Of a stretch of 23,984 bases of DNA, positions 2,375-21,541 are shown piece after piece. The notes under the pieces are model-generated. The model was given only the letters and a program-made list of their open reading frames with translations, searched no databases and was not told the DNA's origin. A program made the position numbers and the translations under genes. Numbering within the stretch: the stretch's first letter is position 1; each line of letters starts with the position of its first letter. Source of the DNA: a virus (taxonomy: Duplodnaviria > Heunggongvirae > Uroviricota > Caudoviricetes); IMG/VR virus record IMGVR_UViG_2740892370_000017, positions 1 through 23,984 of that record; one strand, given 5' to 3'.

Positions 2375-2420
2375 GGGAGAGATTATCTGGATGGCAATCT
2401 AGGTAACTCTCCTTTTTTTT
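2375..2420 (+). terminator. candidate intrinsic terminator
   Basis: GGAGAG (2376-2381) ... CTCTCC (2407-2412) stem followed by T8 (2413-2420); loop is long (25 nt) so the structure is only moderately convincing. Lies between the 71-aa gene and the tape-measure-like gene. Confidence 0.4.
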
Positions 2421-2455
2421 GTATATGAACGCTTAACAGAGGTGAAATATGAACA

Positions 2456-4531
2456 ATGGCACAATTTAAAGTTGATAGTTTTATCGTTGAACTAGGCTTC
2501 AGCGAGAACGTTATTAAGGGCTTGCAAAGAGTTGAAAAGGCAGCTTTGCAGTCAGCACAAAGAATTGAACGTAATTTGAATAGGGCGTTTAAGGTCGATA
2601 CCAAGCAACTTGACAGCAATCTGACAAGTTCTTTAGGGCAACTTGAAAGGAAGTTTAATAAGACCTTTGACAAGATTGAGCAGCGTTTTAAAAACACTAG
2701 AGCGTTTAAGATTAAAACGGAAATTGAGGATACTTTAAAGCCACTTAGACAGCCAAGACAGCCACGAATTAGCGGAAACAGAGCAATCACAGCAGCTTAT
2801 TCAGCTAATATGACCAAGCTGAAAGGTCTTAACCCAATTGTCGAGAAATACATTAAGAGTCAGTTTTACGCATTAAGTAGTAAATCCAAGACACTTGGGA
2901 ACGAAGCTTTTAATCGTGAGTTAGCAAAGTTAAATCAAAATCTACGTGAAACACTTTCTAAGTTTAACAAGACCACCAGCAAAAATAATCACAGTGAAAA
3001 GGCTTCGAATGGTCTGGATGTATTAGCTACAAGTGCAATCAAAGCAGGTACAGCCATTTATAGTTTTCAGACAGCCTTAGAAGCTTACAGGCGGATTATG
3101 GAGATTGGTCTGAAAAAAGAAGCATCACAACGAGCGGCACAATTCGTTTTAGGTGATGAAGGTGCTAAACGAGCTACAGAATTTGTTAAGAATCTTGCTA
3201 ATAACACTGGTGTTGACCAGATTGAAACATTAAGCAGTTTTGCTAAGTTTTCCGCTGGTGCTGGTGATATGGATGCAGGCCAGAAAGAATCCTTATTTTC
3301 TAATGTGATTGGTACATCCAGATTAATGGGGCTAAGCACTGATGAAATTAACGGGATTTTAAAAGCTTTTGAGCAGATGGCGAGCAAGGGCAAGATTCAA
3401 GCTGAAGAATTACGCGGTCAGTTAGGGGACAGAATGGCAGGTGCTTTTCAGTTATTTGCCAGAAGTCTTGGGATGACTACGGAAGAATTAGACAAGGCCA
3501 TGAAAGACGGTAAGGTTCTTTCTAAAGATGTTCTTCCTAAAGTATCCGCTGAAATGGGAAGGATGATTGATAAAGCTGGTGGATGGGAAAAGATTATTAA
3601 CTCTACTCAGACGCAGTTAGGCCGCTTAAGTAATTCATGGAATAATAATCTGGCCTTAATGTTCGATGGTTCACAGGAAGGTCTGGTAGATTTTACAAGG
3701 TCACTGACTAATTTACTTAATTCACTAGGTGGTCAATCTAAAAATCTTGGTGAACATTTTGGCGACCTGATGAAAAGCATGTCAAACGGTATTGATGATT
3801 TAACCACGATTAGCTACCGAGTGCAGGGATTCTTTGACAGAGTGACCCTTGCTTACAGAGAATTAAATGACACTCAAAAAGCTGTAGCTGATGGTATCGC
3901 AAATGGCCTGTTAAGTGCATTAAAGGGACTTGCTGGTATTGTCGCTGTAAGGTCTGGTATTGGTGCTGTAGGTGGTATCTGGAACTTAATTAGGGCTATT
4001 TCCACGCTTGGAAATGTAGCAAATACAGCAGCAGGAAGAATTAATTCACGTTCCGGTAGTGTTGAAGGTGGTAAAGGAAAATTATCTGTAGCTGATGCAA
4101 TTACCAAAGTAATGATTGTCGGTATGGCAACTGATGTGATTAACTCCATTGTTAAACCGTTCTATGAACGTCAGATGAGTAAGTCAGATAATCCAATTGA
4201 CAAAGTTGTAAGGTCAAAGGTGGAACCTACAGACCAAGCATTGTCTGGTGACATGAACTCTTTAGCCGCTGTTTTATGGGCTATGGTTCAGGGCAAATCA
4301 AAAGATGTTCCACAGTTTTCACCTGAAGCATTAAATAATCTGAAAGGTCGAGTGGAAACATTCACACAAGATTTAAAGGTTATCAAGCCGTCAGTAAATA
4401 TTCAGCCTCAGACAATCAATATCACAACTCAGACGGTACTTGATGGAAAGGTTATTGATGAAAGAACCACATCGCATATTAATCGTATGCAGGAAGATAC
4501 CTTGATTAGCTCAGCTTACCCAGAGGAATAA
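2456..4531 (+). CDS. phage tail tape-measure-like protein (691 aa)
   Basis: Long, largely helical ORF; central segment ...GLSTDEINGILKAFEQMASKGKIQAEELRGQLGDRMAGAFQLFARSLGMTTEELDKAMKDGKV... matches the pattern of the conserved tape-measure core (G.S.D...AL....G.I.AEEL..QL.DR...A...A...G.TTEEL...M.DG.V) as I recall it from lambda gpH-type proteins; Gly-rich hydrophobic stretch LKGLAGIVAVRSGIGAVGGIW typical of such proteins. SD AGAGGTG upstream. Confidence 0.55.
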   Translation: MAQFKVDSFIVELGFSENVIKGLQRVEKAALQSAQRIERNLNRAFKVDTKQLDSNLTSSLGQLERKFNKTFDKIEQRFKNTRAFKIKTEIEDTLKPLRQPRQPRISGNRAITAAYSANMTKLKGLNPIVEKYIKSQFYALSSKSKTLGNEAFNRELAKLNQNLRETLSKFNKTTSKNNHSEKASNGLDVLATSAIKAGTAIYSFQTALEAYRRIMEIGLKKEASQRAAQFVLGDEGAKRATEFVKNLANNTGVDQIETLSSFAKFSAGAGDMDAGQKESLFSNVIGTSRLMGLSTDEINGILKAFEQMASKGKIQAEELRGQLGDRMAGAFQLFARSLGMTTEELDKAMKDGKVLSKDVLPKVSAEMGRMIDKAGGWEKIINSTQTQLGRLSNSWNNNLALMFDGSQEGLVDFTRSLTNLLNSLGGQSKNLGEHFGDLMKSMSNGIDDLTTISYRVQGFFDRVTLAYRELNDTQKAVADGIANGLLSALKGLAGIVAVRSGIGAVGGIWNLIRAISTLGNVANTAAGRINSRSGSVEGGKGKLSVADAITKVMIVGMATDVINSIVKPFYERQMSKSDNPIDKVVRSKVEPTDQALSGDMNSLAAVLWAMVQGKSKDVPQFSPEALNNLKGRVETFTQDLKVIKPSVNIQPQTINITTQTVLDGKVIDERTTSHINRMQEDTLISSAYPEE

Positions 4532-4620
4532 ACAATGTTAGAACTACTAATATTTATTGCCACACATGGCAATCTATTAATCTTTATCTAGTATGACGAT
4601 TCAACTATGAATAGTCGAAT

Positions 4621-4675
4621 GCTACGTGAAATCTTCTGAACAGATACCAACATCAAAAATTAGATTTCACGTAGC
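4621..4675. repeat. 14-bp perfect inverted repeat with 27-nt spacer
   Basis: GCTACGTGAAATCT (4621-4634) and AGATTTCACGTAGC (4662-4675) are exact reverse complements; not followed by a T-run. In the 173-bp gap between the tape-measure-like gene and the 254-aa gene. Confidence 0.6.
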
Positions 4676-4704
4676 TCACGCTTAACAGAATAGGAATAAC
4701 AACA

Positions 4705-5469
4705 ATGTTTGACACAAAGCAAATTAGATACTCAGGTAAAGATGGTATCTATTTTCACCTTAGAGATAATGTAGAATCTTTTCTTGCCTTAACAGCTACT
4801 GAACAGATGGACTATGACTCACCGATGATGGTGACAACTCAGGCTATGCAATCGGGGCAAACTATCACTGATAATGTTCAGAGAGCACCTAAGACCATCT
4901 CTATCAGCGGTGTTGTAGTGGTTGATTCGACGGGTTCAGTTCTATTAACCAGACAGGGGCAACTTGTAGAGACCTTTATTTCTACGGTTGAACAATGGCG
5001 AGACCAGAAGCAAATCATCACTATTGTTTGTAGAGATGGAATAGCTATCACTGATAGTATCATTACTCAGTTTAAAGCGAGTAAAGAGCATACCATTGCT
5101 AACGGTCTTCGTATTCAGATGACCTTCCAAGGTGTAGAGTTTCGTTCAATCGTAGGTCAGACTGATATTTCGGCTGCAACTGGCAAGACCGCTACCACGA
5201 ATGATGGTGGTGCTACCAGCAAAAAGAATACAGGGAACACTACAACGAGCCTTGGAAGCCCTATGCTGACCTGTAAAGAGCTTTTTAGCTATTCGGCAAG
5301 TGAGTTATCAGATGAAGCGCTAAAAGCCCGTGTAACGTGCTCTAAGAGCGTTAGCGTTAAAAATGGTGAGAGCACCTTCACAGCCTCAGCTAATGAGCAA
5401 GCTTCAAAGGTGCTTAAGTCGGGTAATGCTTTACGGAAGTTTAGTGTGAATCCTAACAAGCGCTACTGA
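4705..5469 (+). CDS. hypothetical protein (254 aa), Ser/Thr-rich C-terminal half
   Basis: Clean ORF immediately after tape-measure-like gene; weak SD; could be a tail-associated protein by position only. Confidence 0.55.
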
Positions 5470-5483
5470 CGATAGAATCTCAA

Positions 5484-7007
5484 CTATATGATAACCTCAT
5501 CAACATCTATTAAACCCCTCTCAGTGACTTCAGAAAGCGACTGTATAGCCTCTGTAACGTTGTCTGAGGGGGTTTCTGTTATTGGTAGGTCAATTAACTT
5601 ACCGTTGTGAAAAGTTACTTTGCAGCGACGTTTAGCGGTATTTAAAACTACCTCTTTAACAGCACTTTTGATTATCAGTTGTGCTTCAATCCTTCCCGCC
5701 TTTGTAGTCAAGTCACAATCAGACAAACAACCCACATCAATAGATTTAAGGCGTTGTGTCTCCTTCTCGATATCCGCATCAACCTGTGATAACTCATTCT
5801 TTAGTTGTTTTAGTTTGCTGGTAATAGCGGACAAGTCTTCAATTTCAAGTGATAGTTGTACCAGCTTTTCTATATTGCTTGAGATGTGTTCACGGTGTAG
5901 CCTCAACATATCTATGGTATTCGTCGTATCGCTATCAAATCGGTCAAGACGAGATAGCAGGGTAAGCAATGTACCATCGGTTTGCTTACGTGACAGCCCT
6001 TTAGCACTACAACGGTTTTCATTACGAAGAGGACAACGATAAATCCCGTTTCTTGTATCGCTAAAGCCTGTGATAATCAGAGCATGACCACATTCAGAAC
6101 AACGGATAACACCTTTAAAGAGATTCACACTCAATGGTTTACCTGAAACAGGTTTTCGACCGTAACGAGAATGTGATAGTTGTTGAACTTTGTAGAATGT
6201 TGTTTCATCTATAATTGCAGGATAATAACCAGCTATCTCCTCACAGCCTTTAGGGGTGAAGTAACCAATTACAGAGCGATTCTTCAGAAGGTCTTGCACT
6301 GAGGTTTGACCAAACTTACCCGGCTTATACTGGCTCATCGACTGGTGACCTTCATCATTAAGAGTTCTGACAATCTCCCAGATAGACTTACCCTCTAACC
6401 GTAGCTGAAAGCACCTCTTCACAGTCTCCACTTTCTCAGGTATCACAGAGAAGCTTTTACGGTCATCATTAAGCTTAAGCCATGCAGGACAACGTTTAGA
6501 AACTTTGATACCAGCTTTAGCAGCCTCTTTCTTGGCATCCCATGCAGCCTGTATACGCTCAGATTTACGCAAACTCTCCTCATGCGCCCTTTGCATTATC
6601 AAAATGCTTTTAATCAGAGCTAGCGGGTCTCTAAGAGATTCCCTTGTGTAATGTTCACCATCGGACAAGGTGACCACATCTACACCAGAACGCAGGATGT
6701 TTCTTAATAGCTCCGAAGCAATATCTATGTCTTGACGTGACAAACGGTCTAAACTCTCGATTAGTAGTGTATCACCAGCTTTAACAAGCCCTTTCTCGAT
6801 AGCGGTTAAGAAGTCACCTAAGCCACCTTTCAAGTGCTTACCAGTGAACCCACTCACCCCCAAATCACGGAAGGATAAATCTTGGTCAAGGTAGTACTCA
6901 GGATGAGCCTTAAGCCAGTCATTAACCATCTTAGACTGTCTGCGTAGTGAGTCGCCTTTGGCTTGTCGCTCAGAACTGAATCTGATGTAGCTGATTACAC
7001 GTTTCAT
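5484..7007 (-). CDS. large serine recombinase (resolvase/invertase-type catalytic domain plus recombinase and zinc-ribbon regions)
   Basis: N-terminus MKRVISYIRFSSERQ... has the Y.R.SS..Q catalytic serine motif of serine recombinases; 507 aa with Cys-rich CSECGH...YRC segment and C-terminal coiled-coil, typical of large serine integrases. ATG 7007 with SD GAGGTG. Confidence 0.85.
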   Translation of the reverse strand: MKRVISYIRFSSERQAKGDSLRRQSKMVNDWLKAHPEYYLDQDLSFRDLGVSGFTGKHLKGGLGDFLTAIEKGLVKAGDTLLIESLDRLSRQDIDIASELLRNILRSGVDVVTLSDGEHYTRESLRDPLALIKSILIMQRAHEESLRKSERIQAAWDAKKEAAKAGIKVSKRCPAWLKLNDDRKSFSVIPEKVETVKRCFQLRLEGKSIWEIVRTLNDEGHQSMSQYKPGKFGQTSVQDLLKNRSVIGYFTPKGCEEIAGYYPAIIDETTFYKVQQLSHSRYGRKPVSGKPLSVNLFKGVIRCSECGHALIITGFSDTRNGIYRCPLRNENRCSAKGLSRKQTDGTLLTLLSRLDRFDSDTTNTIDMLRLHREHISSNIEKLVQLSLEIEDLSAITSKLKQLKNELSQVDADIEKETQRLKSIDVGCLSDCDLTTKAGRIEAQLIIKSAVKEVVLNTAKRRCKVTFHNGKLIDLPITETPSDNVTEAIQSLSEVTERGLIDVDEVII

Positions 7008-7057: not shown

Positions 7058-7516
7058 TTAAACGTGTCTAATAAAAATCACCCGATTAACGCCGCGCTGA
7101 TGTAAACCGCGATTAAGAGTTTGTTCCTCTTCCCCTTTGGCGAAAAACTGTGGATGGCGGACTTCCACACCATAATTAAATTCGCCAGGGAGAGAATCGA
7201 GAAAATGCCAAAGCGCAGGCAGCTCCCGTGGGCCGAATGTGGCAGGCAGTTGCAGCCAGTATTGCCCAATGCGCGGAGCCAACGGTGACATGCGGGTCAA
7301 AAATTCAGTCACTAAATCATCGCAATGTCGTAATGCTGCCTGATGCGAAATGGTCGCCGGAAACTTAAAACAGAAGCGGAAGTCATCTGTGGTCTGTTCA
7401 CGCCAGCGCAGGACAACCTCGGGTTTCGGCAGGGCGTAAAGCGTGGTGTTGCCCTCCACGCAGTTAACATGACGGGTATTGAAGGCTAACCCACTGATTT
7501 TAATAAGTCTCTTGTG
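7058..7516 (-). pseudogene. yecE: remnant of a chromosomal DUF72-family gene (probably yecE), truncated at both ends
   Basis: GC-richer ORF wedged between two integrase genes. Track start at 7459 is GTG and the frame stays open upstream to a stop at 7517-7519 with no ATG, overlapping the integrase 3' end. At the other end the ORF terminates a few codons after the composition switches to AT-rich sequence near 7075. Identification as yecE is from memory. Confidence 0.45.
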
Positions 7517-8799
7517 TCACTTTGGTGACCATGGGACATCATTGGGACATAATCTGCCAGCTTCTGATTCAGCATTGCGATCTGTTCTGCATTGCTGTCA
7601 GTCATCCATGCTCCGTATACATTGAACACCATCTGGGCACTTGCATGACCCATCTGGCTGGCAATGAAGCTTGGATTTGCTCCGGCAGATAATGACCAGC
7701 ACGCATAAGTGTGTCGTGACTGGTATGCCTTTCGATGCCTGATGCCTGCACGCTTAATAGCTGATTCCCATGAGTCGCCAATGGAATCTACCTTGTAGAT
7801 AAAACCTACCTGTTTGCTTTTTCTAACCACCTGGGGGTTAAATACGAAAGTACATTCATGATTCACTGAACGTCCATATTCACGTAGTTGAACCTTGATG
7901 TGGTGCTGCTTACCCAGTCTTGTCATTTCAGCCTGATTTTTCAGGACACTGATAGCGGGCTGGATAAGATGTATAACCCTGTTAGTACTTGCTTCAGTTT
8001 TAGGTAGAGTGAACTCATCGAGTTTCGTATAATTGCGCCGGATAGTAATTGTTCCTGCTTTCAGATCGATATCTTCCCAGGCCAGGGAGACCAGTTCACC
8101 ATGACGCATTCCTGTGTACACAGCCAATGACCACAGGTTTTTTGTCTGCTGATGTCGGCAAGCATCTATCAGGCGAATAAATTCGTCACGAGTTAGCGGA
8201 TCTGGCTCTGCCCTGGCTTTTTTAAGAGGCTTAATTCCCTCGAAGGGATTTGCTTCTAAGTAACCGTGATCTGCAGCAAACTGAAACATTCCAGCGATTG
8301 TCGTCATGTAATAATTTACTGTGACAACGCTTCGTCCTTTTACCGGAGCCTTACCTTTTGTTGGATTTTGGTGTCCGGTCAGCAAATCTTTCCTGATATA
8401 CAGCAATTCCTCTTTGGTCACCGTTGACACCAGTCTGCTACCTCCAATTTTCGGAACCATCGTTCTTGCAACGGATTCATAACGATTGAATGCATTTGCA
8501 GAGATTTCCATTCGTTTCAGATCCAGCCACTTTTCTTCAAGTTCTTTCACCGTAATTTCTTTTTTACTTACCCCAAAAGCCTGAAGGTTAGGGGAGTCAG
8601 GGAACTGTGCAGCATAATCAAAGTTTCCTGTGCGGATGGCAAAACATACCGATGTCCGCAGTTCTCCAGCGATCTTCCTGTTCTTGGCAGTGTCAGGGAC
8701 ACCAAGATTTTCCCTGACACGTTTACCTTTAAAATTAAACCAGATGCGCAATGTGCCACCGTGGTTTTCGACGCCTGTTGGATATTTGACTTTATCCAT
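7486..8799 (-). CDS. int: phage tyrosine integrase (lambdoid/Rac-like family)
   Basis: 437 aa; N-terminal ...PTGVENHGGTLRIWFNFKGKRVRENL... resembles the arm-binding domain of Rac/P4-like integrases; C-terminal catalytic residues present (R in ...GMRHGEL..., H-x-x-R in ...RHTYACW..., Y in ...VYGAWM). Confidence 0.9.
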   Translation of the reverse strand: MDKVKYPTGVENHGGTLRIWFNFKGKRVRENLGVPDTAKNRKIAGELRTSVCFAIRTGNFDYAAQFPDSPNLQAFGVSKKEITVKELEEKWLDLKRMEISANAFNRYESVARTMVPKIGGSRLVSTVTKEELLYIRKDLLTGHQNPTKGKAPVKGRSVVTVNYYMTTIAGMFQFAADHGYLEANPFEGIKPLKKARAEPDPLTRDEFIRLIDACRHQQTKNLWSLAVYTGMRHGELVSLAWEDIDLKAGTITIRRNYTKLDEFTLPKTEASTNRVIHLIQPAISVLKNQAEMTRLGKQHHIKVQLREYGRSVNHECTFVFNPQVVRKSKQVGFIYKVDSIGDSWESAIKRAGIRHRKAYQSRHTYACWSLSAGANPSFIASQMGHASAQMVFNVYGAWMTDSNAEQIAMLNQKLADYVPMMSHGHQSDTRDLLKSVG

Positions 8800-8854
8800 T
8801 GATACCTCCAGACGCCCAAGAGCGAAACGAGCTTACATACTTCATGGCATTAAA

Positions 8855-9091
8855 TCACCCAGGTTGTTTGTTTTTCATTGAAGCGACCCAGGCATCTATT
8901 GCTTTTCTGTTATACATACATTCGCTGGATGGCTTTGGATTACCATCTGGTGATACGTGAATATACTCTCTTCCTACCATCCAGCATTCTTTCCGGGCTC
9001 GGAGAATTGTGCCTGGTTTGAGCCCGGTAATTGCGATAAGAACGCTTTCACAAACCCATTCATTGGGAGCCAGTTGAATCACATTGCTCAT
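8855..9091 (-). CDS. xis: excisionase-like protein
   Basis: 78-aa ORF immediately upstream of int on the same strand, the canonical xis position; sequence resembles lambdoid excisionase-like small proteins as I recall them. Confidence 0.6.
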   Translation of the reverse strand: MSNVIQLAPNEWVCESVLIAITGLKPGTILRARKECWMVGREYIHVSPDGNPKPSSECMYNRKAIDAWVASMKNKQPG

Positions 9092-9099
9092 ACATTACC

Positions 9100-9246
9100 T
9101 CACACAACACTCAGCCCACGGCAGTGGCACCACACTTCAAACATTCGTTTCACAATTTCACGACAGTAGAAACCGTCAACATCTCGCGTCAGGTCATAGC
9201 GATTGCCGTAACGCTGGCGCACCCATAGCTCAAACGCTTTATTCAT
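9100..9246 (-). CDS. hypothetical small protein (48 aa)
   Basis: Not in the ORF track (too short). ATG at 9246 with SD GGAAG; reads MNKAFELWVRQRYGNRYDLTRDVDGFYCREIVKRMFEVWCHCRGLSVV; stop 9100-9102 lies 8 nt before the xis start. Tightly packed with neighbours. Confidence 0.35.
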   Translation of the reverse strand: MNKAFELWVRQRYGNRYDLTRDVDGFYCREIVKRMFEVWCHCRGLSVV

Positions 9247-9249
9247 TCT

Positions 9250-9492
9250 TTACTTCCTTTTCATGGCCCGTAATTTTTTCAGATGAGCTTCCTGCTCTGT
9301 TTCTGCCAGAATTTGTCGGTATTCCTGGTGATCAATCCGTTCAAACAGTTCATTGAAATCGTTTATTTTTACTGACTGTGTTCGCCCATCCATTCTTCTG
9401 TACAACACAGTGTTGTTTATGCAGCGAACAATTTTTACCGGGTAATCGGCATTGTCGGTATACAGTTGTCCCTGATTAATCAAAGAGAACAT
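9250..9492 (-). CDS. hypothetical protein (80 aa)
   Basis: Track ORF 9250..9615 overlaps the next gene; internal ATG at 9492 (MFSLINQ...) has SD AGGAG and removes the overlap. Confidence 0.5.
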   Translation of the reverse strand: MFSLINQGQLYTDNADYPVKIVRCINNTVLYRRMDGRTQSVKINDFNELFERIDHQEYRQILAETEQEAHLKKLRAMKRK

Positions 9493-9523
9493 TTTTTCTC
9501 CTGCTCTCTGAATAGCGAGAACT

Positions 9524-9895
9524 TCAGAGCCGTATGTTTGTAGCGGGTTCAATACTGATAATTTCTGCTGAGATAAGCATCCCGGCAAGCCAGAGCTCTC
9601 CGGACAGGTCTTCATCCTGGCATATCAGTTCGCCAATATTAATGGTGGCCATGATGTCTGTTTCCCCTGTACGCTCATCCTCGACTTCTTCATAAGGCAG
9701 CGTTGCGTACAGGCTTTCAATAGCGCAACTGATAACATCGAGTCCGGTCAGGTTGCCACCGACAGTGACTTCGAATGTTTCGCGGTATTCCCATAGCCCG
9801 AAAGTTAATCGAACGGTTTGTTTTGCCATGCGTCCGCATGACGTCAGATTTGGGTCATAGTTCATTATTTGCGGTTGAGTATTATGAGTGTTCAT
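9524..9895 (-). CDS. hypothetical protein (123 aa), acidic
   Basis: ATG 9895 with SD-like AGGGA; no recognised motif. Confidence 0.5.
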   Translation of the reverse strand: MNTHNTQPQIMNYDPNLTSCGRMAKQTVRLTFGLWEYRETFEVTVGGNLTGLDVISCAIESLYATLPYEEVEDERTGETDIMATINIGELICQDEDLSGELWLAGMLISAEIISIEPATNIRL

Positions 9896-9936
9896 CTGCT
9901 TTTCCCTTAGCCCGACGGTCTGCCGGGCATATTAAG

Positions 9937-10267
9937 TTATTTAACCTGGATAAATGGTGTATTGGCACCACTGGTCATGTATTGCGGCAGCGTGCCGTTC
10001 CATTTATTGATGGCTTCCAGCTCCACAACACCGGGGTTCTGACGCAGAGCTTCACCGCGTAAACGAATAGCATCGGCTTCAGCCTGGGCTTTTGTGCGAA
10101 TCGCATCAGCCTGTCCAGTAGCGACCAACCCCGACCACTTCACCGACGCCTTTGTCGTCGTCAAGTTTGTTGACTTTGATGCCCACATTACCAGGCTCAA
10201 CACGATCACAACCGACAAGGCCAATGGCAGGCAGAACAATGGCTAAAGAAAAAATAATTTTTTTCAT
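9937..10267 (-). pseudogene. lipoprotein gene remnant, frameshifted (N-terminal signal/lipobox in one frame, SPFH/band-7-like C-terminal tail in another)
   Basis: Frame A from ATG 10267: MKKIIFSLAIVLPAIGLVGCDRVEPGNVGIKVNKLDDDKGVGEVV... (signal peptide plus LVGC lipobox) stops at 10106; frame B (track 9937..10239) continues ...VATGQADAIRTKAQAEADAIRLRGEALRQNPGVVELEAINKWNGTLPQYM..., which resembles the C-terminal tail of prohibitin/HflC-type proteins. Total is far shorter than an intact protein of that type. Confidence 0.4.
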
Positions 10268-10452
10268 CTTTTATCCTTGGTGAAAGAAAGCCCCTTATAA
10301 ATGGCACAAATGCACGGCGGGGTCAGACACGCCAGAGCAAAGCCAGAAATCACTGCTACCGTATCCTTCATTGATATGAGGGCCGGAACGATTAATCCGT
10401 AAATACATGAGATAATTGCCAGTGATATAACTATTTTGAAATAAATGTTCAT
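10264..10452 (-). CDS. small hydrophobic membrane protein (62 aa)
   Basis: ATG 10452 with strong SD AGGAGG 5 nt upstream; two hydrophobic stretches; stop overlaps lipoprotein ATG as ATGA. Confidence 0.55.
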   Translation of the reverse strand: MNIYFKIVISLAIISCIYGLIVPALISMKDTVAVISGFALACLTPPCICAIYKGLSFTKDKR

Positions 10453-10512
10453 GGTCCTCCTGATGTATGCGGCTTGCCTTATTTAATTGCGTCATGGTTA
10501 ATTTCGTTTACG

Positions 10513-10905
10513 TCAGAATGGTTTTGTTGCCATCAGTTCGTAATATCCGGCGCTCCATGTGTCATATTTTCTGAACCATTTTTCTGTATACTGTTTCCTG
10601 GCGATGAGTCTGCGCAGTCGTCTGATTGTTCGCTGGTGTGCGCGGGTATACTCTGTGGTTGATTCTCCACGTTTCCATATCTCATTCCCGTTGAAGATAA
10701 AACGCTTGTCAGGATAGCGTTGCCGGAATCCTGAACGTTCAAAAGCGCGGGTGGTCATAAAGAATGCCAGGTAACGAATTGCCGTTTTTCGGGTGAGGCA
10801 TTTTTTTGTTCTTCCGTGGCGTGTTACAAAAAATAACGGGCCGACGGGTGTATCATGTTTCTGTAATGCCTGGTCAATGGCGCTGGCGGTGCGGTTGTCG
10901 ATCAT
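10513..10905 (-). CDS. hypothetical protein (130 aa), basic
   Basis: ATG 10905; ATGA overlap with upstream track ORF; no recognised motif. Confidence 0.5.
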   Translation of the reverse strand: MIDNRTASAIDQALQKHDTPVGPLFFVTRHGRTKKCLTRKTAIRYLAFFMTTRAFERSGFRQRYPDKRFIFNGNEIWKRGESTTEYTRAHQRTIRRLRRLIARKQYTEKWFRKYDTWSAGYYELMATKPF

Positions 10906-11091
10906 TTCTTTATTTCTCCCGAATAACGTTCATGACTCATTACTTCCCAGTTCCGGCCGTCGCCTTTCGATAACAGCCGCCAGCAACGGTTAACCTTCAG
11001 ACTGAGATATCCGGTGCGCTGTATCCGATGCGGAAATATCCGTCGGCATCGGTACAACAACAGGACCTGCAATGCCTGCCGGTGGATCCGC

Positions 11092-11307
11092 TCAGGAATG
11101 CGTGTTGCTGTTAATGCCACCGGTTTCCTCCTGAGCAGGTGCTGTTATCTGATACCCCGCTCTTTCTGCCAGCCGTATGAATGTATCCATGCTGGCAATC
11201 AGCTCGCCATCGCGGACTTTGCAGACACCTGTGACTTGGCCATTTTCAATTGTCATAACGATCTGCACTTTTTCGCGCACAACAGATACAGGGGATAAAT
11301 TAGCCAT
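11092..11307 (-). CDS. hypothetical protein (71 aa)
   Basis: ATG 11307 with SD GAGGA 8 nt upstream; protein-like composition. Confidence 0.5.
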   Translation of the reverse strand: MANLSPVSVVREKVQIVMTIENGQVTGVCKVRDGELIASMDTFIRLAERAGYQITAPAQEETGGINSNTHS

Positions 11308-11432
11308 CAGTTAATTCCTCCACTGGTATATTTTTCTTTCGCGTAATCAATAACCTCTTGAAAAAGGTTGTCTATAATTAACTTTCCGGTTTCAGTCAGG
11401 TATTCAGTATGTTGATTAATCCCGATAGCATT

Positions 11433-11666
11433 CTAGTATGCAGTGTGGATTTCGGTTTCACCCTCCACCCGGCCCAATTCACCACGGGTAATACCTTCGA
11501 AGCGTAACAGCAACTGGTTTATAAACTGTTCAGTTATTTCTATAGTCGCAATGTTCCCATCCGGAAGGTCAACAATAAGCAGATTACCACCTGTTTTACG
11601 TTTTATTCGATGGAGTGCCGCAACAGCTATACGGCGACGATATGTATTAATGGGTTCATATGCCAT
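11433..11666 (-). CDS. hypothetical small protein (77 aa) with Arg-rich N-terminus
   Basis: ATG 11666; N-terminal ...TYRRRIAVAALHRIKRK... is Arg-rich; sits just below a 200-bp AT-rich intergenic region where a leftward early promoter would be expected. An N-like antiterminator role is speculation. Confidence 0.45.
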   Translation of the reverse strand: MAYEPINTYRRRIAVAALHRIKRKTGGNLLIVDLPDGNIATIEITEQFINQLLLRFEGITRGELGRVEGETEIHTAY

Positions 11667-11865
11667 TTGTTATTTCCCGTATGCTTTACGCAGAAATAAG
11701 CAGGCAATATGCATGTAATTTTCACCGTGTTGTGCAATAAGACAGGCTGTTTTGTGTGATGTCTTATGTTTTATAAAAGTCATAATAAAGGCTCCAGTGG
11801 ATTAAGTGTGTGATAATCCCCGGCGATTAAGCCGTAATATATTGTTCAGCGATAATATGTTTTAT

Positions 11866-12066
11866 TTAACTGGATAGTTCTTTTTCAGTTGCTGCTTCAG
11901 CATAGCAACGTGCAAATTCAAGAACTTCATCACCTGTTCTTTTTATTGCATCGTTGTCTGACATTTGTAATACGACAACTGCGCATAATAAATCATGGAT
12001 ATTGTTTGCAAAGGAATCCGGTGCCAGGCATAAGCCTTCATACTTATCATGGATATTGCCAGTCAT
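11866..12066 (-). CDS. hypothetical small protein (66 aa)
   Basis: Track ORF 11866..12108 overlaps the upstream gene; internal ATG 12066 (MTGNIHDKYEG...) has SD AAAGGAG 8 nt upstream and starts 5 nt after the upstream stop. Confidence 0.45.
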   Translation of the reverse strand: MTGNIHDKYEGLCLAPDSFANNIHDLLCAVVVLQMSDNDAIKRTGDEVLEFARCYAEAATEKELSS

Positions 12067-12071
12067 TGTTG

Positions 12072-12743
12072 CTACTCCTTTGCTTCTGATTTTCCCGTTA
12101 ACAACCACACCAGGTCACAATTAAGCGCACTGGCCAGTGGTACTATCTGATCAGCAGGAACTTCACAGATGCCGCATTCCCAGTCGTTTATGGGGGCACT
12201 GTAGGTATGAATCATGCGGGCAAGATCAGCTTCAGTTAAGCCCAGTTTTTTACGGGCGCTTTTGATGCGTGCGCCAATACTTTCCACATGGACTTCAGGC
12301 GCATTTACGCGAATAGCTGACTCGCTGTTTTTTTCACTCAGCAGAGAAAGCGGATCGCATCCCAGGACGTTTGCCAGGGGGATAAGCATGCTGATGGTTG
12401 GTTCGTACTCTCCGCTCTCCCATTGCAGAATAATCTCTTCGTCAAGATCGAGTAGTCTGGCCAGTTCGGTGGTCGTCAAGCCGCAGGCTTCACGTTGGGT
12501 ACGGATTTTTCCAAAAAAGTGACTATGCGAAACCATAGCTTTTGCCTCACATAGTTTTTCTGCAAAAATTGATGCAGTTTCTTCTGTTTTTTGCAGGGAA
12601 CGCATCAGGCATCTGATTGCATTATAAACCCTCTCACTTTCTGCTCCGTTTTCTGACATGTAGGAATAGATCATTCCAAGCAGCGAGCCGCCTTCTTGTA
12701 TTTGTGCTGCAATTTCATCCATCACCTTAACTGCATGCTTCAT
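12072..12743 (-). CDS. double helix-turn-helix (XRE-type) DNA-binding protein (223 aa)
   Basis: Two HTH_XRE-like segments (...GLTTTELARLLDLDEEIILQWESGEYEPTISMLIPLANVLGCDPLSLL... and ...GLTEADLARMIH...INDWECGICEVPADQIVPLASALNCDLVWLLTG). ATG 12743 with SD AGGAGG. Lies immediately downstream of cI on the same strand. Confidence 0.7.
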   Translation of the reverse strand: MKHAVKVMDEIAAQIQEGGSLLGMIYSYMSENGAESERVYNAIRCLMRSLQKTEETASIFAEKLCEAKAMVSHSHFFGKIRTQREACGLTTTELARLLDLDEEIILQWESGEYEPTISMLIPLANVLGCDPLSLLSEKNSESAIRVNAPEVHVESIGARIKSARKKLGLTEADLARMIHTYSAPINDWECGICEVPADQIVPLASALNCDLVWLLTGKSEAKE

Positions 12744-12919
12744 ATGAGCCTCCTGTTGTTTTAATTTTACAATAGCTAAAGCGTTTGGTTATGTCAATCG
12801 CTATAGCTATGCATTTTGAGCAGCAAAGAACAGATTATGAGAGAAATGAGACGATACGTAGGGAGTTGAGATACAGGAAAGTAGAGCAGCTGCGCAATAC
12901 AGCTGCCGGTGATGTTGAC

Positions 12920-13624
12920 TTATCCGACCCTGTTATACTGGATTGACTGATGAATGAGAACTTTCCCCATTATGAATAGATGTTCTTCAGCTGATTCACT
13001 TATAAACCATTCCTTGTAGGCCGGATTGTCTGATATAACAGCAAGTTGCATCCCTTGCATTTGCAGGCGTTTGATATGGAAGGTGTGCCCAAAAATAAAA
13101 ACATAGATACCGTCAGTTTCAAAATTTCTGACGGATACGTCGACAAACACCTGATCTCCTGCACACAGAGTAGGAGCCATGCTGTCGCCATCAACTGTTA
13201 TCATCTTTATGATATTTGCTGGCCTGCTACAGAACAGACGTCTTGCGGCGTCATGTGAAAATTCTATAGCATGGACCGTTTCTGCAAAATCTGAAACAAG
13301 GAATGTTCCTGGTCCCGCGCTGGCAGCGATATCCAGGACTTCCACACGAAAAATATCCTTATCATTTTCCAGCGGGGAATATGATACCTGTGGTGTCGGA
13401 TTGCAGGATGTGCTTTCTTCTGGGGTCATAGGACCAACACCGTACGATAGCCACTCGGGGCGCACGTTCAGGGTATTGGCTATCTCCACAACTTTCCTGG
13501 AGCCTGTGGCACCATTAACCAGTTTATTTACGCTCGATTGAGCCATGCCAACCTCTCTGGCCAGTTTTCCCTGCGAGTATCCGCGGATAGTCATAGCTAA
13601 CTGTAGCCTGTCTGAAAAGCTCAT
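12920..13624 (-). CDS. cI: cI-like phage repressor (N-terminal HTH, C-terminal LexA/S24-type autopeptidase domain)
   Basis: From ATG 13624 (SD AAGGAGG): MSFSDRLQLAMTIRGYSQGKLAREVGMAQSSVNKLVNG... (HTH); C-terminal ...VDGDSMAPTL... and ...HIKRL... match the Ser/Lys dyad context of S24 peptidases. Divergent from the Cro-like gene. Confidence 0.85.
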   Translation of the reverse strand: MSFSDRLQLAMTIRGYSQGKLAREVGMAQSSVNKLVNGATGSRKVVEIANTLNVRPEWLSYGVGPMTPEESTSCNPTPQVSYSPLENDKDIFRVEVLDIAASAGPGTFLVSDFAETVHAIEFSHDAARRLFCSRPANIIKMITVDGDSMAPTLCAGDQVFVDVSVRNFETDGIYVFIFGHTFHIKRLQMQGMQLAVISDNPAYKEWFISESAEEHLFIMGKVLIHQSIQYNRVG

Positions 13625-13747
13625 AAGTCCTCCTTTTTCTGCCCTTTTAGTGTATCGCCTTAGCGATATATACACAAACCGCTTTTCCGCACATTGTAAT
13701 CGCTTTGATCAATCGCTATAGTGAATGGAATCAGGTTGGAGGTCGAT
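13625..13747. promoter_or_regulatory. cI-cro divergent control region with operator candidates
   Basis: 16-bp perfect palindrome TATCGCCTTAGCGATA at 13653-13668; additional ATCGC half-site copies at about 13697 and 13710; 13-mer TCAATCGCTATAG at 13708-13720 recurs at 12794-12806 upstream of the double-HTH gene. Confidence 0.5.
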
Positions 13748-14011
13748 ATGAAAAATGAAGGTATAGCCAAGGCTGTAGATATTGCGGGAAGCCAGATTGC
13801 TCTGGCTAGGCGTTGTGGTCGCGCGCAGTCAACAATTTGCGACTGGCTGAATGGGAAGAAAAAAATTTCTCCTGAATTTGTTCCGTCTCTGGTTAAGGCG
13901 GTCGATGGGAAAGTCCAGGCGTATGAATTTCGTCCTGATCTACCGGAGCTTTTCCCACACCCAAGCTTAGCGCACACAGAAGATGGAGTGTGCGAAGGAG
14001 ATAAACAGTGA
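13748..14011 (+). CDS. cro: Cro-like small HTH regulator (87 aa)
   Basis: ATG 13748 with SD GGAGG 7 nt upstream; ...IAGSQIALARRCGRAQSTICDWLNGKK... is HTH-like; divergent from cI across the operator region. Confidence 0.6.
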   Translation: MKNEGIAKAVDIAGSQIALARRCGRAQSTICDWLNGKKKISPEFVPSLVKAVDGKVQAYEFRPDLPELFPHPSLAHTEDGVCEGDKQ

Positions 14012-14715
14012 ATACAGCAATTTTTACCGACAAAGCATCTATGACCAGCGTTGAGATTGCTGAGTTGGTTGGTAAGCGCCATGACAATGTAAAACGCACT
14101 ATTGAAACATTAGCCAAAGGTGGTGTTGTCCGGTCTCCTCAAATTGAGGTTTCCGAAAGAATCAATAACTTAGGGTTTAAAGTTCAACACGAGCATTATC
14201 TGTTTGAAGGCGAACAAGGCAAACGCGACAGCATTATTGTTGTCGCACAGCTTTGCCCTGAATTCACCGCCCGCCTGGTAGACCGCTGGCGTGAACTGGA
14301 AGAACAGATCCGTAAGCCAATGAGCGAAATCGAAATGGTTGCCGCGATGGCGCTCGAGGCTGTTCGCCAACAAAGACGTCTTGAGCATGTGGAAGAGAAA
14401 GTCATCCACGTTACCGAAACAGTCGAGCAAATCAAAAGAGGCACCATACGCGATGGTTATGCAGGCTACCGTCAGCTGGTGGCGAAAACGGGTATGTCAG
14501 ATGCGAAATGTCGCAATCTGGTGAACGCATATCAGATCCCTACTGACACCCATGAATTTATGACGCCGGATGGATTGTTGTCTCGTCGCGCGATTGTTGC
14601 AGTAGAACCCTTCATGTCTGCTTTTCATCGCATGATGAGTGAAGCAGAACCACGGGGTACTCGCTGGTATCACCCGAAGATGGGGCTGTTCCAGGCGCTG
14701 GGCTGGCAGGGGTAA
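14008..14715 (+). CDS. phage antirepressor/regulatory protein (Rha/ORF6N-like N-terminus)
   Basis: GTG 14008 overlaps the cro stop; SD AAGGAG 7 nt upstream. N-terminal ...MTSVEIAELVGKRHDNVKRTIETL... matches the conserved FGKRHDNV-type motif of Rha/ORF6N antirepressor-like proteins. Confidence 0.6.
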   Translation: MNTAIFTDKASMTSVEIAELVGKRHDNVKRTIETLAKGGVVRSPQIEVSERINNLGFKVQHEHYLFEGEQGKRDSIIVVAQLCPEFTARLVDRWRELEEQIRKPMSEIEMVAAMALEAVRQQRRLEHVEEKVIHVTETVEQIKRGTIRDGYAGYRQLVAKTGMSDAKCRNLVNAYQIPTDTHEFMTPDGLLSRRAIVAVEPFMSAFHRMMSEAEPRGTRWYHPKMGLFQALGWQG

Positions 14716-14734
14716 TTATGCTCACAGGTAACAC

Positions 14735-14914
14735 ATGCAAGTACTCAATCGCTGGTTCCGTGATGGAAGAGGGCGTCGCGTCCACGTTATACGCTGGGAG
14801 CCTGAAACACAGCGGGTTATTTACCTGCGTGATGGTTATCCGGATGAGTGCTTCAGCCCACTATGGTTGTTTCGTCGTGATTTTGTTGAGTGCGAAGCGC
14901 CACCAGCATATTGA
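14735..14914 (+). CDS. hypothetical small protein (59 aa)
   Basis: Not reported separately by the track. Frame from ATG 14735 reads MQVLNRWFRDGRGRRVHVIRWEPETQRVIYLRDGYPDECFSPLWLFRRDFVECEAPPAY, more protein-like than the overlapping frame of the 340-aa track ORF. Confidence 0.4.
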   Translation: MQVLNRWFRDGRGRRVHVIRWEPETQRVIYLRDGYPDECFSPLWLFRRDFVECEAPPAY

Positions 14915-15188
14915 TTCTGCAATTCCGGGACGTTACACTGCTCAGGCACCTTATAAAGCGGGTGCCGGGATTGGCGTCCTGAAACTTACAGAAGAGCATA
15001 ACCGCGCTCATGCGGTTTTTTCATGTCATGAGCATTGCTACGCCCAAATTATGGTGGGGCGTGCAGGGGCATCGCAAGATGCGCCGGGTTCTTCTGTGAC
15101 CGGTTACGCCAACCCTGTACGTCTCACCACCTCTGTGATTGGCGTCCCATGTGGTGAGTGTTTTAAACTCACAGAAGGGGCTGTCATC

Positions 15189-15740
15189 ATGACTACTCTC
15201 CCAACCATCGCTCAACCTGAACTTTGCATTGTTGCTGGCAAAGTGGTTACTTCTTCTCTGTCTGTTGCCTGTTATTTCCGCAAACAACACAAAAATGTCA
15301 TTCAAAAAATTGCGTCTCTTGAATGCTCTGCCGAATTTACTGAGCTGAATTTTCAGCCCAGTGAATACACCGACGCATCAGGCCGCAAACTCCCTTGTTA
15401 CCAAATCACCCGCGACGGTTTTGCATTTCTTGCTATGGGTTTCACGGGTAAACGTGCTGCCCGGTTCAAAGAAGCATACATCAATGCCTTTAACCAGATG
15501 GAGAGGTGCTTATCAGGAGTTGGTGCGGCTGATATGCCATCTGTCGCACAAAACGCCAGAGGCGTATACCTGCATTTGCGAGAAATCCACCAAATCTGGA
15601 CAAGCCAGCTTTATCCCATGCTTAAGGCTGTTGAATCTCCGCTGGCTAGCAAACTGTACGACCGTGTAGGTGATGCTGTTTTTGGTGCTGCACTTGTTGA
15701 TTCCAGACTGAACGGTTCTGACAAGGAGGCGCACCCATGA
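15189..15740 (+). CDS. Rha-family phage regulatory protein (183 aa)
   Basis: Internal ATG 15189 of track ORF 14718..15740; ...YFRKQHKNVIQKIASL... and ...ITRDGFAFLAMGFTGKRAARFKEAYINAFNQME... match the pRha domain pattern (FGKRHDNV.R.I.NL ... MTRDGF.LLAMGFTGKKA..FK.AYI.AFN.ME) as I recall it. Confidence 0.65.
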   Translation: MTTLPTIAQPELCIVAGKVVTSSLSVACYFRKQHKNVIQKIASLECSAEFTELNFQPSEYTDASGRKLPCYQITRDGFAFLAMGFTGKRAARFKEAYINAFNQMERCLSGVGAADMPSVAQNARGVYLHLREIHQIWTSQLYPMLKAVESPLASKLYDRVGDAVFGAALVDSRLNGSDKEAHP

Positions 15741-15970
15741 TTCGCCGCGTCGTTAGTTCCCTGTATCACCGATACAACCACTGCCCCCGTGTGGGGCAGT
15801 GGTTCACCACCAGCAACGGTCACGTTCTGCGGGTTTGCCTGGTCAATACAGAAAGCCAGAAGGTTGTCTGCCAGGTTCAGGGATGTACTCATACCCTGAG
15901 TTATCCGCTGGTGGCGTTTCAGTCCGGAAAAATGTTTAAACGCCTGGGAGGTGGCTATGCGTCCGTCTGA
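15737..15970 (+). CDS. hypothetical small Cys/His-containing protein (77 aa)
   Basis: ATGA overlap with Rha gene stop; Cys/His pattern (HCPRVG...CLVN...CQVQGCTH) could be a small zinc-binding fold; function unknown. Confidence 0.45.
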   Translation: MIRRVVSSLYHRYNHCPRVGQWFTTSNGHVLRVCLVNTESQKVVCQVQGCTHTLSYPLVAFQSGKMFKRLGGGYASV

Positions 15971-16850
15971 TCTTCTGCTCGATTTTGGACATCCGGTTGC
16001 TTATTACCCTGGGCTCGTTAAATACATGGGAAGTCCGCACGCTGTTATTTTCTTTGGTCAGATTTTTTACTGGCAGGATAAAGCACATGCAGCGGAAGGC
16101 GTACATAAAACGCGTGAAGAGATACAACACGAAACAGGACTTACATTTGAACAACAGGCTGTAGCGCGTAAGTATCTTGTGTCCAGAGGCATTTTGGTTG
16201 AAACCAACAAGCGTCTTGAGCACAAAATGTTCTACCGTATAGATTGTGAGCGCCTTAATGAAATTATCAATGAAAACAATCAGTTTTCCCGAAATGGGGA
16301 AACCCGTTTTCGGGAAACTGTAAAACCCAATTTCGCGGAGGAGGGAAAGCCTTCACCGCGGACACGGGAAACCCCTCGCCGCGGAGAAGGGAAAACCAAT
16401 TTCGATCTTACAGAGAATACAACAGAGATTACTTCAGAGAATACTACAGAGAGTAAAAACACTATTGGCGCATCCGCTGACGCGTCTGCACCAGCACGTT
16501 CTGCCCGACAGGAATATTCACCGGAATTTGAACAGGCCTGGCAGGAATATCCCAAACGTGCTGGTGGTAATTCCAAGTCAGCAGCCTTCAAAGCCTGGAA
16601 AGCCCGTATCAGGGAAGGTGTGACACCCGAAACCATGCTCAACGGTGTGAAACGCTATGCCGCCTGGGTGCGTGTCTCAGGAAATACCGGCACCCAGTTC
16701 GTGAAGCAGGCATCGACGTTCTTTGGCCCCGATCGGCACTTTGACGAATCCTGGCAACAGTCAGCAGCTCCCGGAGGTGGGCGGGGCAAAAGCCTCCCGA
16801 TCTCGGGATTCAGTGAACAGGACTACGGCTCAACGAACTTCAACTGGTGA
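15957..16850 (+). CDS. replication initiator (lambda O-like) with internal origin repeats
   Basis: ATG 15957 with SD GGAGG 5 nt upstream; N-terminal region HTH-like; the coding sequence contains direct-repeat arrays (16288-16458); followed directly by helicase loader and DnaB-like genes. Confidence 0.65.
   Translation: MRPSDLLLDFGHPVAYYPGLVKYMGSPHAVIFFGQIFYWQDKAHAAEGVHKTREEIQHETGLTFEQQAVARKYLVSRGILVETNKRLEHKMFYRIDCERLNEIINENNQFSRNGETRFRETVKPNFAEEGKPSPRTRETPRRGEGKTNFDLTENTTEITSENTTESKNTIGASADASAPARSARQEYSPEFEQAWQEYPKRAGGNSKSAAFKAWKARIREGVTPETMLNGVKRYAAWVRVSGNTGTQFVKQASTFFGPDRHFDESWQQSAAPGGGRGKSLPISGFSEQDYGSTNFNW
16288..16458. repeat. candidate replication origin: GGGAAAC-type repeats and four 12-bp-phased CAGAGAnTA iterons
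   Basis: GGGAAA(C) recurs about five times between 16297 and 16396 with inverted element CCCGAAA/TTTCGGG (16288-16314); CAGAGAATAC, CAGAGATTAC, CAGAGAATAC, CAGAGAGTAA begin at 16411, 16423, 16435, 16447, exactly 12 bp apart, encoding the repetitive peptide TENTTEITSENTTES. Confidence 0.55.
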
Positions 16851-16867
16851 TTTTGTGGGGTGTGAAA

Positions 16868-19409: not shown

Positions 19410-19454
19410 TGGCTGAATTTTTTCTCCTGTGTTCATGCAATATCGTTCGCTGAG

Positions 19455-20450: not shown

Positions 20451-20467
20451 TTTTGTGGATAAAGTTT

Positions 20468-20833: not shown

Positions 20834-20845
20834 ACTACCAGAATA

Positions 20846-20880
20846 GAAACTGCCGCTCAGCTTTGCGGATCGGCAGTTTC
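20846..20880. terminator. 10-bp inverted repeat hairpin between convergent Q gene and minus-strand operon
   Basis: GAAACTGCCG (20846-20855) and CGGCAGTTTC (20871-20880), 15-nt loop, 13 nt after the Q stop and overlapping the last codons of the minus-strand gene 20857..21279; no clear T-run on either strand. Confidence 0.4.
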
Positions 20881-21524: not shown

Positions 21525-21541
21525 GTTCAGTGTCACTTTTG

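Follow-up and report, generated by a model that had tools for sequence, protein, structure and literature searches.

An unannotated palindromic DNA element between the tail genes of an Escherichia coli island, and its relatives beside recombinase genes

The window analysed here, positions 1 to 23,984 of the IMG/VR record IMGVR_UViG_2740892370_000017, is a stretch of Escherichia coli chromosome whose left part belongs to an island with phage-like tail genes; the gap between its tape-measure gene and its Dit-like gene contains a perfect 14-base-pair (bp) inverted repeat. This repeat is one copy of a large family of unannotated, ~55-bp palindromic DNA elements, for which we found no annotation, Rfam family or literature. 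The family consensus is made of two inverted 16-bp half-sites, CGCTACGTRAAWTCTG, then a 21-nucleotide (nt) centre, then CAGAWTTYACGTAGCG. We tentatively favour the view that the element is a double-stranded DNA (dsDNA) site recognised by its sequence, a putative operator or accessory site, which would also serve as a junction for mosaic recombination; we prefer it because the half-sites are conserved as sequence, their spacing is rigid, covariation is absent and both orientations occur.

Conservation of the palindrome in E. coli and beyond

The two arms, GCTACGTGAAATCT (4621–4634, plus strand) and AGATTTCACGTAGC (4662–4675, plus strand), are 100% complementary and 27 nt apart, as a preliminary description of this DNA had reported, and they do lie 3′ of the tape-measure gene (2456–4531). 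First-order Markov simulation of the window (300 sequences) gave 0.007 perfect inverted repeats of 14 bp or longer with a 3–60-nt loop per sequence, against one observed, which upholds the claim that the repeat is not random. The same description was right that this is no typical intrinsic terminator: no T-run follows the repeat, a consensus scan of 4200–5600 returned no terminator-like or sigma-70-like site, and the loop has 27 nt instead of 3–8 nt. The stem has an A+T-rich inner part, and CTCACGCTTAAC lies 3′ of it.

The repeat belongs to a discrete, non-coding module of ~70 nt (4612–4690, plus strand), the “D copy”, located between the tape-measure and Dit-like genes. Using BLAST with positions 4600–4700, we found the module at 580 places in 450 of 5426 complete E. 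coli genomes, all chromosomal and none annotated, at a rate of 1–6 places per genome. About 30 of the 580 places were inspected; in all of these ~30 fetched loci, the module stands between tape-measure and Dit-like genes, with a serine recombinase gene adjoining.

Conservation in related elements was thus found, but it does not extend to the whole repeat: only the outer 9–10 bp of each arm and the fixed arm spacing are conserved among island copies, which we compared in an alignment of 28 distinct module copies (A1) and in a larger set of 47 distinct island-type copies. What is kept is (G)CTACGTGAA in the 5′ arm (4621–4630 in the window, 4623–4629 being almost invariant), TTYACGTAG(C) in the 3′ arm (4666–4675), the 35–36-nt distance between the two and the tail CTCACGCTTAA. 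On the inner side of the stem, four pairs (AATCT/AGATT) form in only ~45–60% of the island copies. The perfect 14-bp form is a minority, as 5 of the 450 genomes match a 101-nt query at 99% identity or more; the commonest close variant (98% identity) reads GTGAtTTCT, with two stem pairs broken.

The centre, or “loop” (4635–4661, plus strand), is variable, with three or four sequence types and a conserved ATAC(C) mid-way. Its left and right halves reassort, and nearly all combinations are seen among the 47 copies, with B, C or D on the left combined with TATTTT or TAGAAT on the right. Positions 4661–4666 (plus strand) form a −10-like TAnnnT hexamer, TAGATT in the window and TATTTT, TAGAAT, TAGATT, TAATTT or TAGTTT among the island copies, whose T1, A2 and T6 are invariant in 47 out of 47; from its sequence, it is a candidate promoter element. 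No conserved −35 accompanies it, and the wider family has CAGAWT at this place. The tail (4676–4688, plus strand), TCACGCTTAACAG, is island-specific and nearly invariant, and it includes the motif CTTAACAG. This octamer is over-represented in the island, with 5 copies in the window against 0.77 expected (749, 2432, 3908, 4681 and 4788) and 7 against 0.78 in the complete island copy L001 (4176, 4685, 4908, 10433, 11909, 12682 and 12789); all copies are inside the island, one of them in the tail of each module.

We then scanned viral and metagenome contigs with the pattern CTACGTGAA-N30-40-TTYACGTAG, which matched 28 IMG/VR contigs and at least 120 metagenome contigs; more than 150 related sites were listed. 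Exactly 53 bp separate the outer arm ends in 120 of the 152 listed sites (79%), and this one length, despite the 11 spacings allowed, indicates that most matches are real relatives. One has to bear in mind that the scan fixed 9+9 arm bases, so that their conservation outside E. coli is in part a product of the pattern, and relatives that diverge further are missed. The 96 distinct non-island members read ..aGGcgwCG, CTACGTGAAATCTG, ~21 nt (often A-rich, then GCAGGGG), CAGATTTCACGTAG and CGCnnCC..; they lack the island-specific tail, and the bases next to their arms extend the inverted repeat (GCG..CGC) and do not form a direct repeat. The window's 14-bp stem hence agrees with the family consensus, from which most island copies have drifted. 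The sources named in the records are Pantoea, Lelliottia, Citrobacter, E. albertii and Shigella, and one metagenome contig matches a Vibrio RNA family weakly, below threshold. A search of the literature for the arm sequences as text returned only unrelated primers and probes.

In the wider family, with the open reading frames (ORFs) of metagenome loci called by a simple ORF finder, most elements are intergenic, 23 of them in divergent, 31 in tandem and 9 in convergent regions; 20 overlap an ORF of at least 100 amino acids (aa) according to this crude call, and 19 are at the locus edge. Both orientations relative to the neighbouring genes occur, and the asymmetric centre is inconsistently oriented with respect to the downstream gene. 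Some contigs carry two copies, 0.2–3.7 kb apart. In one metagenome contig (L059, 1537–2727), two palindromes bracket a 1.7-kb stretch without any ORF of at least 60 aa, which contains a dif-like site, ACGCATAATGTATATTATGTTAAAT, and the gene of a 438-aa tyrosine integrase is found just downstream.

That the repeat should be a chance palindrome or a functionless relic of a rearrangement is very improbable. The left part of the gap does resemble a relic of an ancestral gene junction; against this stand the simulated expectation given above, the fact that the module is the best-conserved piece among diverged islands, and the presence of identical arms in more than 150 unrelated contigs at one fixed spacing.

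A hairpin in the polycistronic tail mRNA is another possibility: it would protect the 3′ end of the tape-measure message, be an RNase III site or mask or expose the downstream ribosome-binding site (RBS), and would in this way set the ratio of tape-measure to Dit-like protein. The structure prediction called for in the preliminary description did give a strong fold for the gap RNA (4532–4704; −41.1 kcal/mol, z = −6.2). Moreover, the two flanking genes are co-oriented, with the repeat on their sense strand and 17 nt 5′ of an RBS, most family members could form a stem of 14–17 bp, and a frequent C-to-T change in the 3′ arm (17 of 28 island copies) gives a G.U pair on the sense strand. The comparative data argue otherwise. 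No compensatory change was seen in the seven core pairs among the 28 distinct island copies, and their RNAalifold consensus has only 7 bp (−4.15 kcal/mol). The 14-pair helix is 83.9% paired against 83.5% in shuffled controls, and 202 of 500 shuffles reach the observed value. In the wider family (96 members), the two arms of the element vary independently: the R/Y position is A.C in 31% and G.T in 22%, so that on one and the same strand A.C exceeds G.U, the W position is mismatched in 40%, and the outer flanks of the arms pair only slightly above shuffled controls. The extension of the stem fails to pair in roughly one island copy out of two and is broken in the commonest near-identical variant, the 27–35-nt loop shows no conserved structure within it, no T-run follows, and the element also occurs in divergent intergenic regions and in both orientations. 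A conserved structured RNA is not supported, given that compensatory pairs are missing, pairing equals that of the shuffled control and A.C is at least as common as G.U.

A known RNA family was rejected as well, for lack of a match in Rfam: with Rfam 15, the best hit on the gap was mir-137 (19.8 bits versus a 56.7-bit threshold, E = 0.26), there was no match at the repeat in a scan of the whole window, and none on six family loci. We hold an RNA hairpin to be unlikely overall. Among the three candidates of the preliminary description, the RNA processing or stability element is therefore the one disfavoured; the operator gains from sequence-invariant half-sites at fixed spacing, and the recombination-type site from the homology breakpoints at the arms and from the related elements beside lox-cre and resD genes.

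Other readings were set aside as well. A nut-type antitermination site (boxA + boxB) has the boxA consensus CGCTCTT(T)A next to a short hairpin; this identity was discarded since the tail CGCTTAAC lacks 2–3 bases of boxA and is island-specific, the boxA resemblance of CGCTTAACAG requiring a 2–3-nt deletion. The loop as an antisense seed against phage RNA was dropped, as it has no complementarity to any phage record, and a 13-nt match between the loop and the Dit-like gene (CTTCTGAACAGAT / CTACTGAACAGAT) is, by a rough estimate, at about chance level.

Mosaic junctions and neighbouring recombinase genes

Segment identity to the window changes abruptly at the module. In L016, it is 95% over the tape-measure 3′ end, 100% over the left gap part, 87% over the module, 70% over the Dit-like gene and 92% over the recombinase gene; the first four values are 99%, 100%, 75% and 96% in L018 and 98%, 100%, 77% and 71% in L017, the recombinase gene being unaligned in both. 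In L002, L004 and L020, the tape-measure 3′ end cannot be aligned and the module is 81–90% identical. BLAST alignments with other islands start precisely at 4610 or 4620, as do those with the E. coli genomes, which stop at 4689. Together, these abrupt shifts and alignment starts at the element indicate that it marks an exchange point of island modules.

Many islands carry a second copy, “U”, just upstream of the tape-measure start and after a terminator-like hairpin with a T-run (L001, L002, L003, L011, L013, L017, L023, L025, L026 and L032). At the U position of the window (2375–2439, plus strand), the palindrome is missing; the intrinsic-terminator-like hairpin GGGAGAG..CTCTCC (2375–2412, plus strand), followed by T8 (2413–2420) and directly 5′ of the tape-measure gene, and the motif ACGCTTAACAG (2429–2439, plus strand) are kept. 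A different small hairpin occupies this position in L033, and nothing does in L034. In two independent loci, L003 (6263–6290) and L007 (9317–9368 and 4323–4351), IS3-family elements (ends TGAACCGCCCCGGG..) are inserted within the palindrome; one insertion is in the 5′ arm, with the Dit-like gene deleted, and the other near the 3′ arm, tied to a rearrangement. Separately, we observed a second big-loop hairpin, AAAGGCTTGG..20 nt..CTAAGCCTTT, ~20–90 nt 3′ of the module in many islands (L002, L004, L016 and others); it sits between the module and the Dit-like RBS, with the direct repeat ATCAAAGG on either side. L017 cleanly lacks this hairpin, and the window has none.

Outside the islands, ~40% of the loci have a Cre-like or ResD-like recombinase gene within 3 kb of the element (28 of 96 for the former, 12 of 96 for the latter). 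The Cre-like proteins are full-length Cre homologues (E = 1e-77 to PDB Cre). At 16 loci, a 341–361-aa protein starts 3–39 nt from the element (15 of them at 19–39 nt) and reads away from it. At seven loci, a full-length 248–268-aa ResD-like tyrosine recombinase starts 24–100 nt from the element; an eighth ResD-like locus has a 71-aa fragment only. The ResD-like proteins are ~51% identical to the resolvase encoded 3′ of ccdAB on IncF plasmids. The element is nevertheless not the site of the F-plasmid ResD system, as an F-type region upstream of ccdAB-resD is devoid of it. Neither a protein family common to the E. coli island and the 96 non-island loci nor a RAYT-like or other transposase cluster near these 96 loci was found.

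The three Cre-like loci that we read (L038, L052 and L179, the last being a Pantoea agglomerans plasmid locus) share one arrangement: a lox-like 13-8-13 site, 30–55 nt, the element, 19–39 nt and the start of the recombinase gene. These lox-like sites 5′ of Cre homologues are unannotated (L038 6593–6626, L052 ~308–341 and L179 ~3312–3345) and lie on plasmid or phage-plasmid-like contigs; one example reads ATAACTCCATATA-ACACCCAT-TATATGGAGTTAT, and the one of the P. agglomerans plasmid, TAACTTCGTATA-ATTGTTCT-TATACGAAGTCA, has arms that are almost those of loxP. As far as its annotation goes, the lox-cre region of P1 contains a LexA box, cra and three promoters, not this palindrome.

Such surroundings raise the possibility that the palindrome is recombination-active or mobile, an exchange or insertion unit of DNA with only secondary effects on expression: a trans-acting recombinase would act on it, or it would be a selfish repeat that readily forms hairpins, like a miniature inverted-repeat transposable element (MITE) or a REPIN, and it would spread among mobile elements and shuffle the genes it flanks. 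We see this as a serious possibility, though not a probable one. It would fit the recombinase genes of the non-island loci, the homology that breaks at the arms, the polymorphic U site (palindrome, different small hairpin, nothing, or tail only) and the two direct copies that flank the tape-measure gene in many islands like a cassette; it would also fit the freely combining halves of the centre, the often non-complementary flanks outside the arms, the contigs with two copies and the IS3-family insertions inside the element in L003 and L007. On the other hand, there is no target-site duplication, the bases adjacent to the arms continuing the inverted repeat; the arms are 21 bp apart, unlike a tyrosine-recombinase core site, and at three loci a separate lox-like site lies nearby; no RAYT or other transposase is associated with the 96 loci; and the island's own recombinase is a serine integrase acting at the island ends. 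Furthermore, E. coli has few copies per genome, on the chromosome only, and every inspected one is in an island, so that this is not a genome-wide repeat.

The known repeats of this kind differ from the element in definite ways. As loxP and attC sites do, it consists of inverted repeats next to tyrosine recombinase genes. Lox sites, however, have a 13-8-13 structure, and a lox-type core site was rejected because the arms are ~21 bp apart, whereas such a site has arms of 11–13 bp around a 6–8-bp crossover region, and because distinct lox-like sites adjoin the element. With integron attC sites, the island tail shares GCTTAAC, which fits the inverse-core pattern RYYYAAC; an attC site has RYYYAAC and GTTRRRY at opposite ends as well as extrahelical bases, whereas the element has one box, in island copies only, no partner box and an uninterrupted stem, and the wider family lacks the tail altogether. 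Like repetitive extragenic palindromic (REP) sequences, REPINs and MITEs, the element is intergenic, hairpin-forming and polymorphic in presence or absence, and its arms mutate independently. It differs from them in its low copy number (1–6 places per E. coli genome versus tens to hundreds, which, with the missing RAYT-like cluster, led us to reject a REP or REPIN) and in the lack of a transposase and of a target duplication; REPINs are also lineage-specific, whereas the arms of the element are identical across genera.

The island and its phage relatives

Positions 1 to ~7050 of the window (37–42% G+C) are part of a low-GC, integrative element of ~11 kb in yecE (DUF72), of which a complete copy without neighbouring prophage is found at L001 3802–15077. 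The island starts with genes for a Dam-family methyltransferase with a helix-turn-helix tail, a lambda-O-like replication initiator and several small unknowns, and continues with those of a 233-aa protein, a 71-aa protein, the tape-measure protein, the Dit-like protein and, on the opposite strand, a serine recombinase. In the window, the tape-measure gene (2456–4531, plus strand) matches phrog_4036 (E = 7e-98) and is annotated as such by RefSeq in near-identical copies. The gene of the Dit-like “phage baseplate protein” (4705–5469, plus strand; phrog_3721, E = 2e-126) carries the Pfam domain Dit_like PF21821 in the L001 copy, and its RBS, AGGAA (4693–4697), is 17 nt 3′ of the 3′ arm. The large serine recombinase gene (5484–7007, minus strand; phrog_95) encodes Resolvase, Recombinase and Zn_ribbon_recom domains in the L001 copy. 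Positions 4000–5500, a 1.5-kb segment from the tape-measure 3′ end across the gap to the Dit-like gene, match 404 of the 5426 complete E. coli genomes, with 109 full-length matches, and islands are inserted in yecE, beside tonB, beside lpxL or beside wrbA. A search of genome contigs with the Dit-like protein returned three loci only (E. albertii, Citrobacter and Shigella).

The DNA of the Dit-like gene is 72–76% identical to genes of Ounavirinae phages (Felixounavirus, Mooglevirus), and the whole block from the 233-aa protein to the Dit-like protein is related to these lytic phages. Judging from its gene content, the island may be a satellite-like element of Felix-O1-like phages. It has the look of a phage satellite or an anti-phage island not described before, and we found no literature on this island family. 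In phage Silverhawkium, the order is chaperones, tape-measure gene and Dit-like gene (gp66), and the tape-measure stop and the next start overlap or are at most 20 nt apart (GAATAATGTTATGGGATAACAACATG). The window retains both halves of this junction, GGAATAAACAATGTTAG (4525–4541) and GGAATAACAACAATG (4693–4707), with ~150 nt between them. Since the phage junction is tight and both of its halves are kept at this distance, the gap with its repeat is an island-specific insertion. Indeed, the 88.8-kb genome of Silverhawkium has no module (arms, tail and profile were all not found), and the 101-nt module had no match in 50,697 phage records at E values up to 10; this led us to reject the idea that the module mimics a promoter or a packaging site of a helper phage.

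The left part of the gap (4532–4611, plus strand) is optional: it is 100% identical in L001, L005, L016, L017 and L018, and missing from islands whose tape-measure stop abuts the module. It opens with a copy of the ancestral tape-measure stop/Dit start junction, AGGAATAAACAATGTT, and holds an 18-codon hydrophobic ORF, MLELLIFIATHGNLLIFI (4535–4591), behind a copy of the ancestral RBS and start. It also contains a small hairpin, TTGCCAcacaTGGCAA; this is the smaller repeat TTGCCA-caca-TGGCAA of the preliminary description, which does exist but at 4557–4572, nine bases to the right of the 4548–4563 given there.

Several other features of the region were recorded along the way. Just 3′ of the tape-measure RBS, GAGGTG, an ATG in another frame (2449) starts a mini-ORF of 6 codons that overlaps the annotated start of the gene (2456); the tape-measure gene may rely on both read-through and translational coupling. 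The Dit-like and serine recombinase genes are convergent, with 14 nt between their stops (5469–5484) and no terminator, so that transcripts of the tail genes would extend into the integrase gene in antisense. Iterons, (T)TTACCCACTGAGTCAAAAT, are found within the replication-initiator gene of the island (L001 6360–6450), and the 7-mer TACCCAC is seen again 5′ of a 107-aa gene (L001 8362) and in many module copies, in their centre. The corresponding stretch of the window reads ATACCAAC. A likeness of the centre to these iterons (TACCCAC..TGA..AAAAT) and to a DnaA box was judged too weak to use. Positions 7457–23984 of the window are a phiP27/Stx-like lambdoid prophage that occupies the same yecE, directly adjoining the island, with a tyrosine integrase gene at 7486–8799 on the minus strand; yecE is thus split by two different elements. 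Within the prophage, Rfam recognises a C4 antisense RNA (15047–15134) and isrK (14946–15022).

Proposed role of the element

Returning to the dsDNA site that we favour, albeit with less than even confidence, a symmetric sequence-specific protein, encoded by the host or by the element, would recognise both half-sites. Located just upstream of the gene it accompanies, the site would act as an operator or accessory site; this gene is the Dit-like one here, the tape-measure gene at the second copy of many sister islands, and a Cre-like or ResD-like recombinase gene elsewhere. The element would have entered a gene junction that has no such gap in the ancestral phage, thereby uncoupling the Dit-like gene from the tape-measure gene, and the second copy would likewise free the tape-measure gene from its phage-type coupling in many islands. 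As the best-conserved stretch of the region, it would also be a preferred crossover point for the exchange of island modules.

Several observations weigh against such a role. No shared candidate regulator that could bind the element is found near its copies, in line with the lack of a common protein family at the island and the other loci. The promoter scan of 4200–5600 is empty and the hexamer has no conserved −35; TAnnnT is fixed in one lineage, which may reflect shared ancestry and not selection. The inconsistent orientation of the asymmetric centre, the dispensability of the U copy (missing in the window, L033 and L034) and the arm conservation partly built into the scan outside E. coli point the same way. 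Finally, with its 16 bp and its 21-nt centre, such a palindrome can also fold into a hairpin or a cruciform, and a single-stranded or RNA function is possible.

Three known systems help to place the element. On mobile elements, the operators of global regulators, such as the KorB OB sites of IncP plasmids, are contiguous palindromes of 13–20 bp that recur upstream of several genes or operons. Our palindrome likewise recurs upstream of genes on mobile DNA, conserved in sequence and not in pairing, with the inverted half-sites and fixed geometry of such an operator (half-site CGCTACGTRAAWTCTG, the same span in 120 of 152 sites); it differs in having two 16-bp half-sites ~21 bp apart and no shared candidate regulator near its copies. 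The promoter-early stem-loop (PeSL) cassettes of T4-type phages and the boundary or linker sequences of lambdoid phages are short conserved intergenic stem-loop cassettes that flank shuffled genes. The island element also flanks genes shuffled between related genomes and coincides with homology breakpoints, here at 4610 and 4620. In contrast with PeSLs, it has only a putative promoter hexamer, a fixed two-half-site geometry and arms that are invariant across distant replicons (plasmids, chromosomes and the satellite-like island). The multimer-resolution sites cer and psi of plasmids, for their part, have accessory sequences with ArgR, ArcA and PepA. A conserved non-core element by the resolution site and gene of a tyrosine recombinase is what we see in L038, L052 and L179, yet the element has no similarity to ARG or ArcA boxes and is also present far from resolution sites, as in the island.

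The same half-sites at the same spacing are found on E. coli islands, on plasmids of Pantoea and of the IncF type, by multimer-resolution recombinases, and on metagenome contigs that are partly Vibrio-like, and this shared cis-element points to a common trans-acting factor across mobile elements. One more far-reaching idea, which we regard as a long shot, is that the palindrome is the recognition site of a DNA-exchange system common to plasmids, chromosomal islands and phage satellites. If this were true, any gene with a copy on either side, the tape-measure gene for instance, would be exchanged as a cassette, either through a trans-acting recombinase or through hairpin-mediated strand switching, and the same exchange machinery would account for the regular place of the element between a lox-like site and a cre-like gene; satellites could then quickly change their tail-gene alleles in an arms race with Felix-O1-like helper phages.

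For users of Cre-like systems from such plasmids, it is worth keeping in mind that the lox-like site and the recombinase gene are separated by a conserved element. As for the island, about 8% of complete E. coli genomes carry it, its tape-measure and Dit-like genes derive from lytic Felix-O1-like phages, and the element is the most obvious lead to how the tail genes of the island may be switched on and how their alleles may be exchanged.

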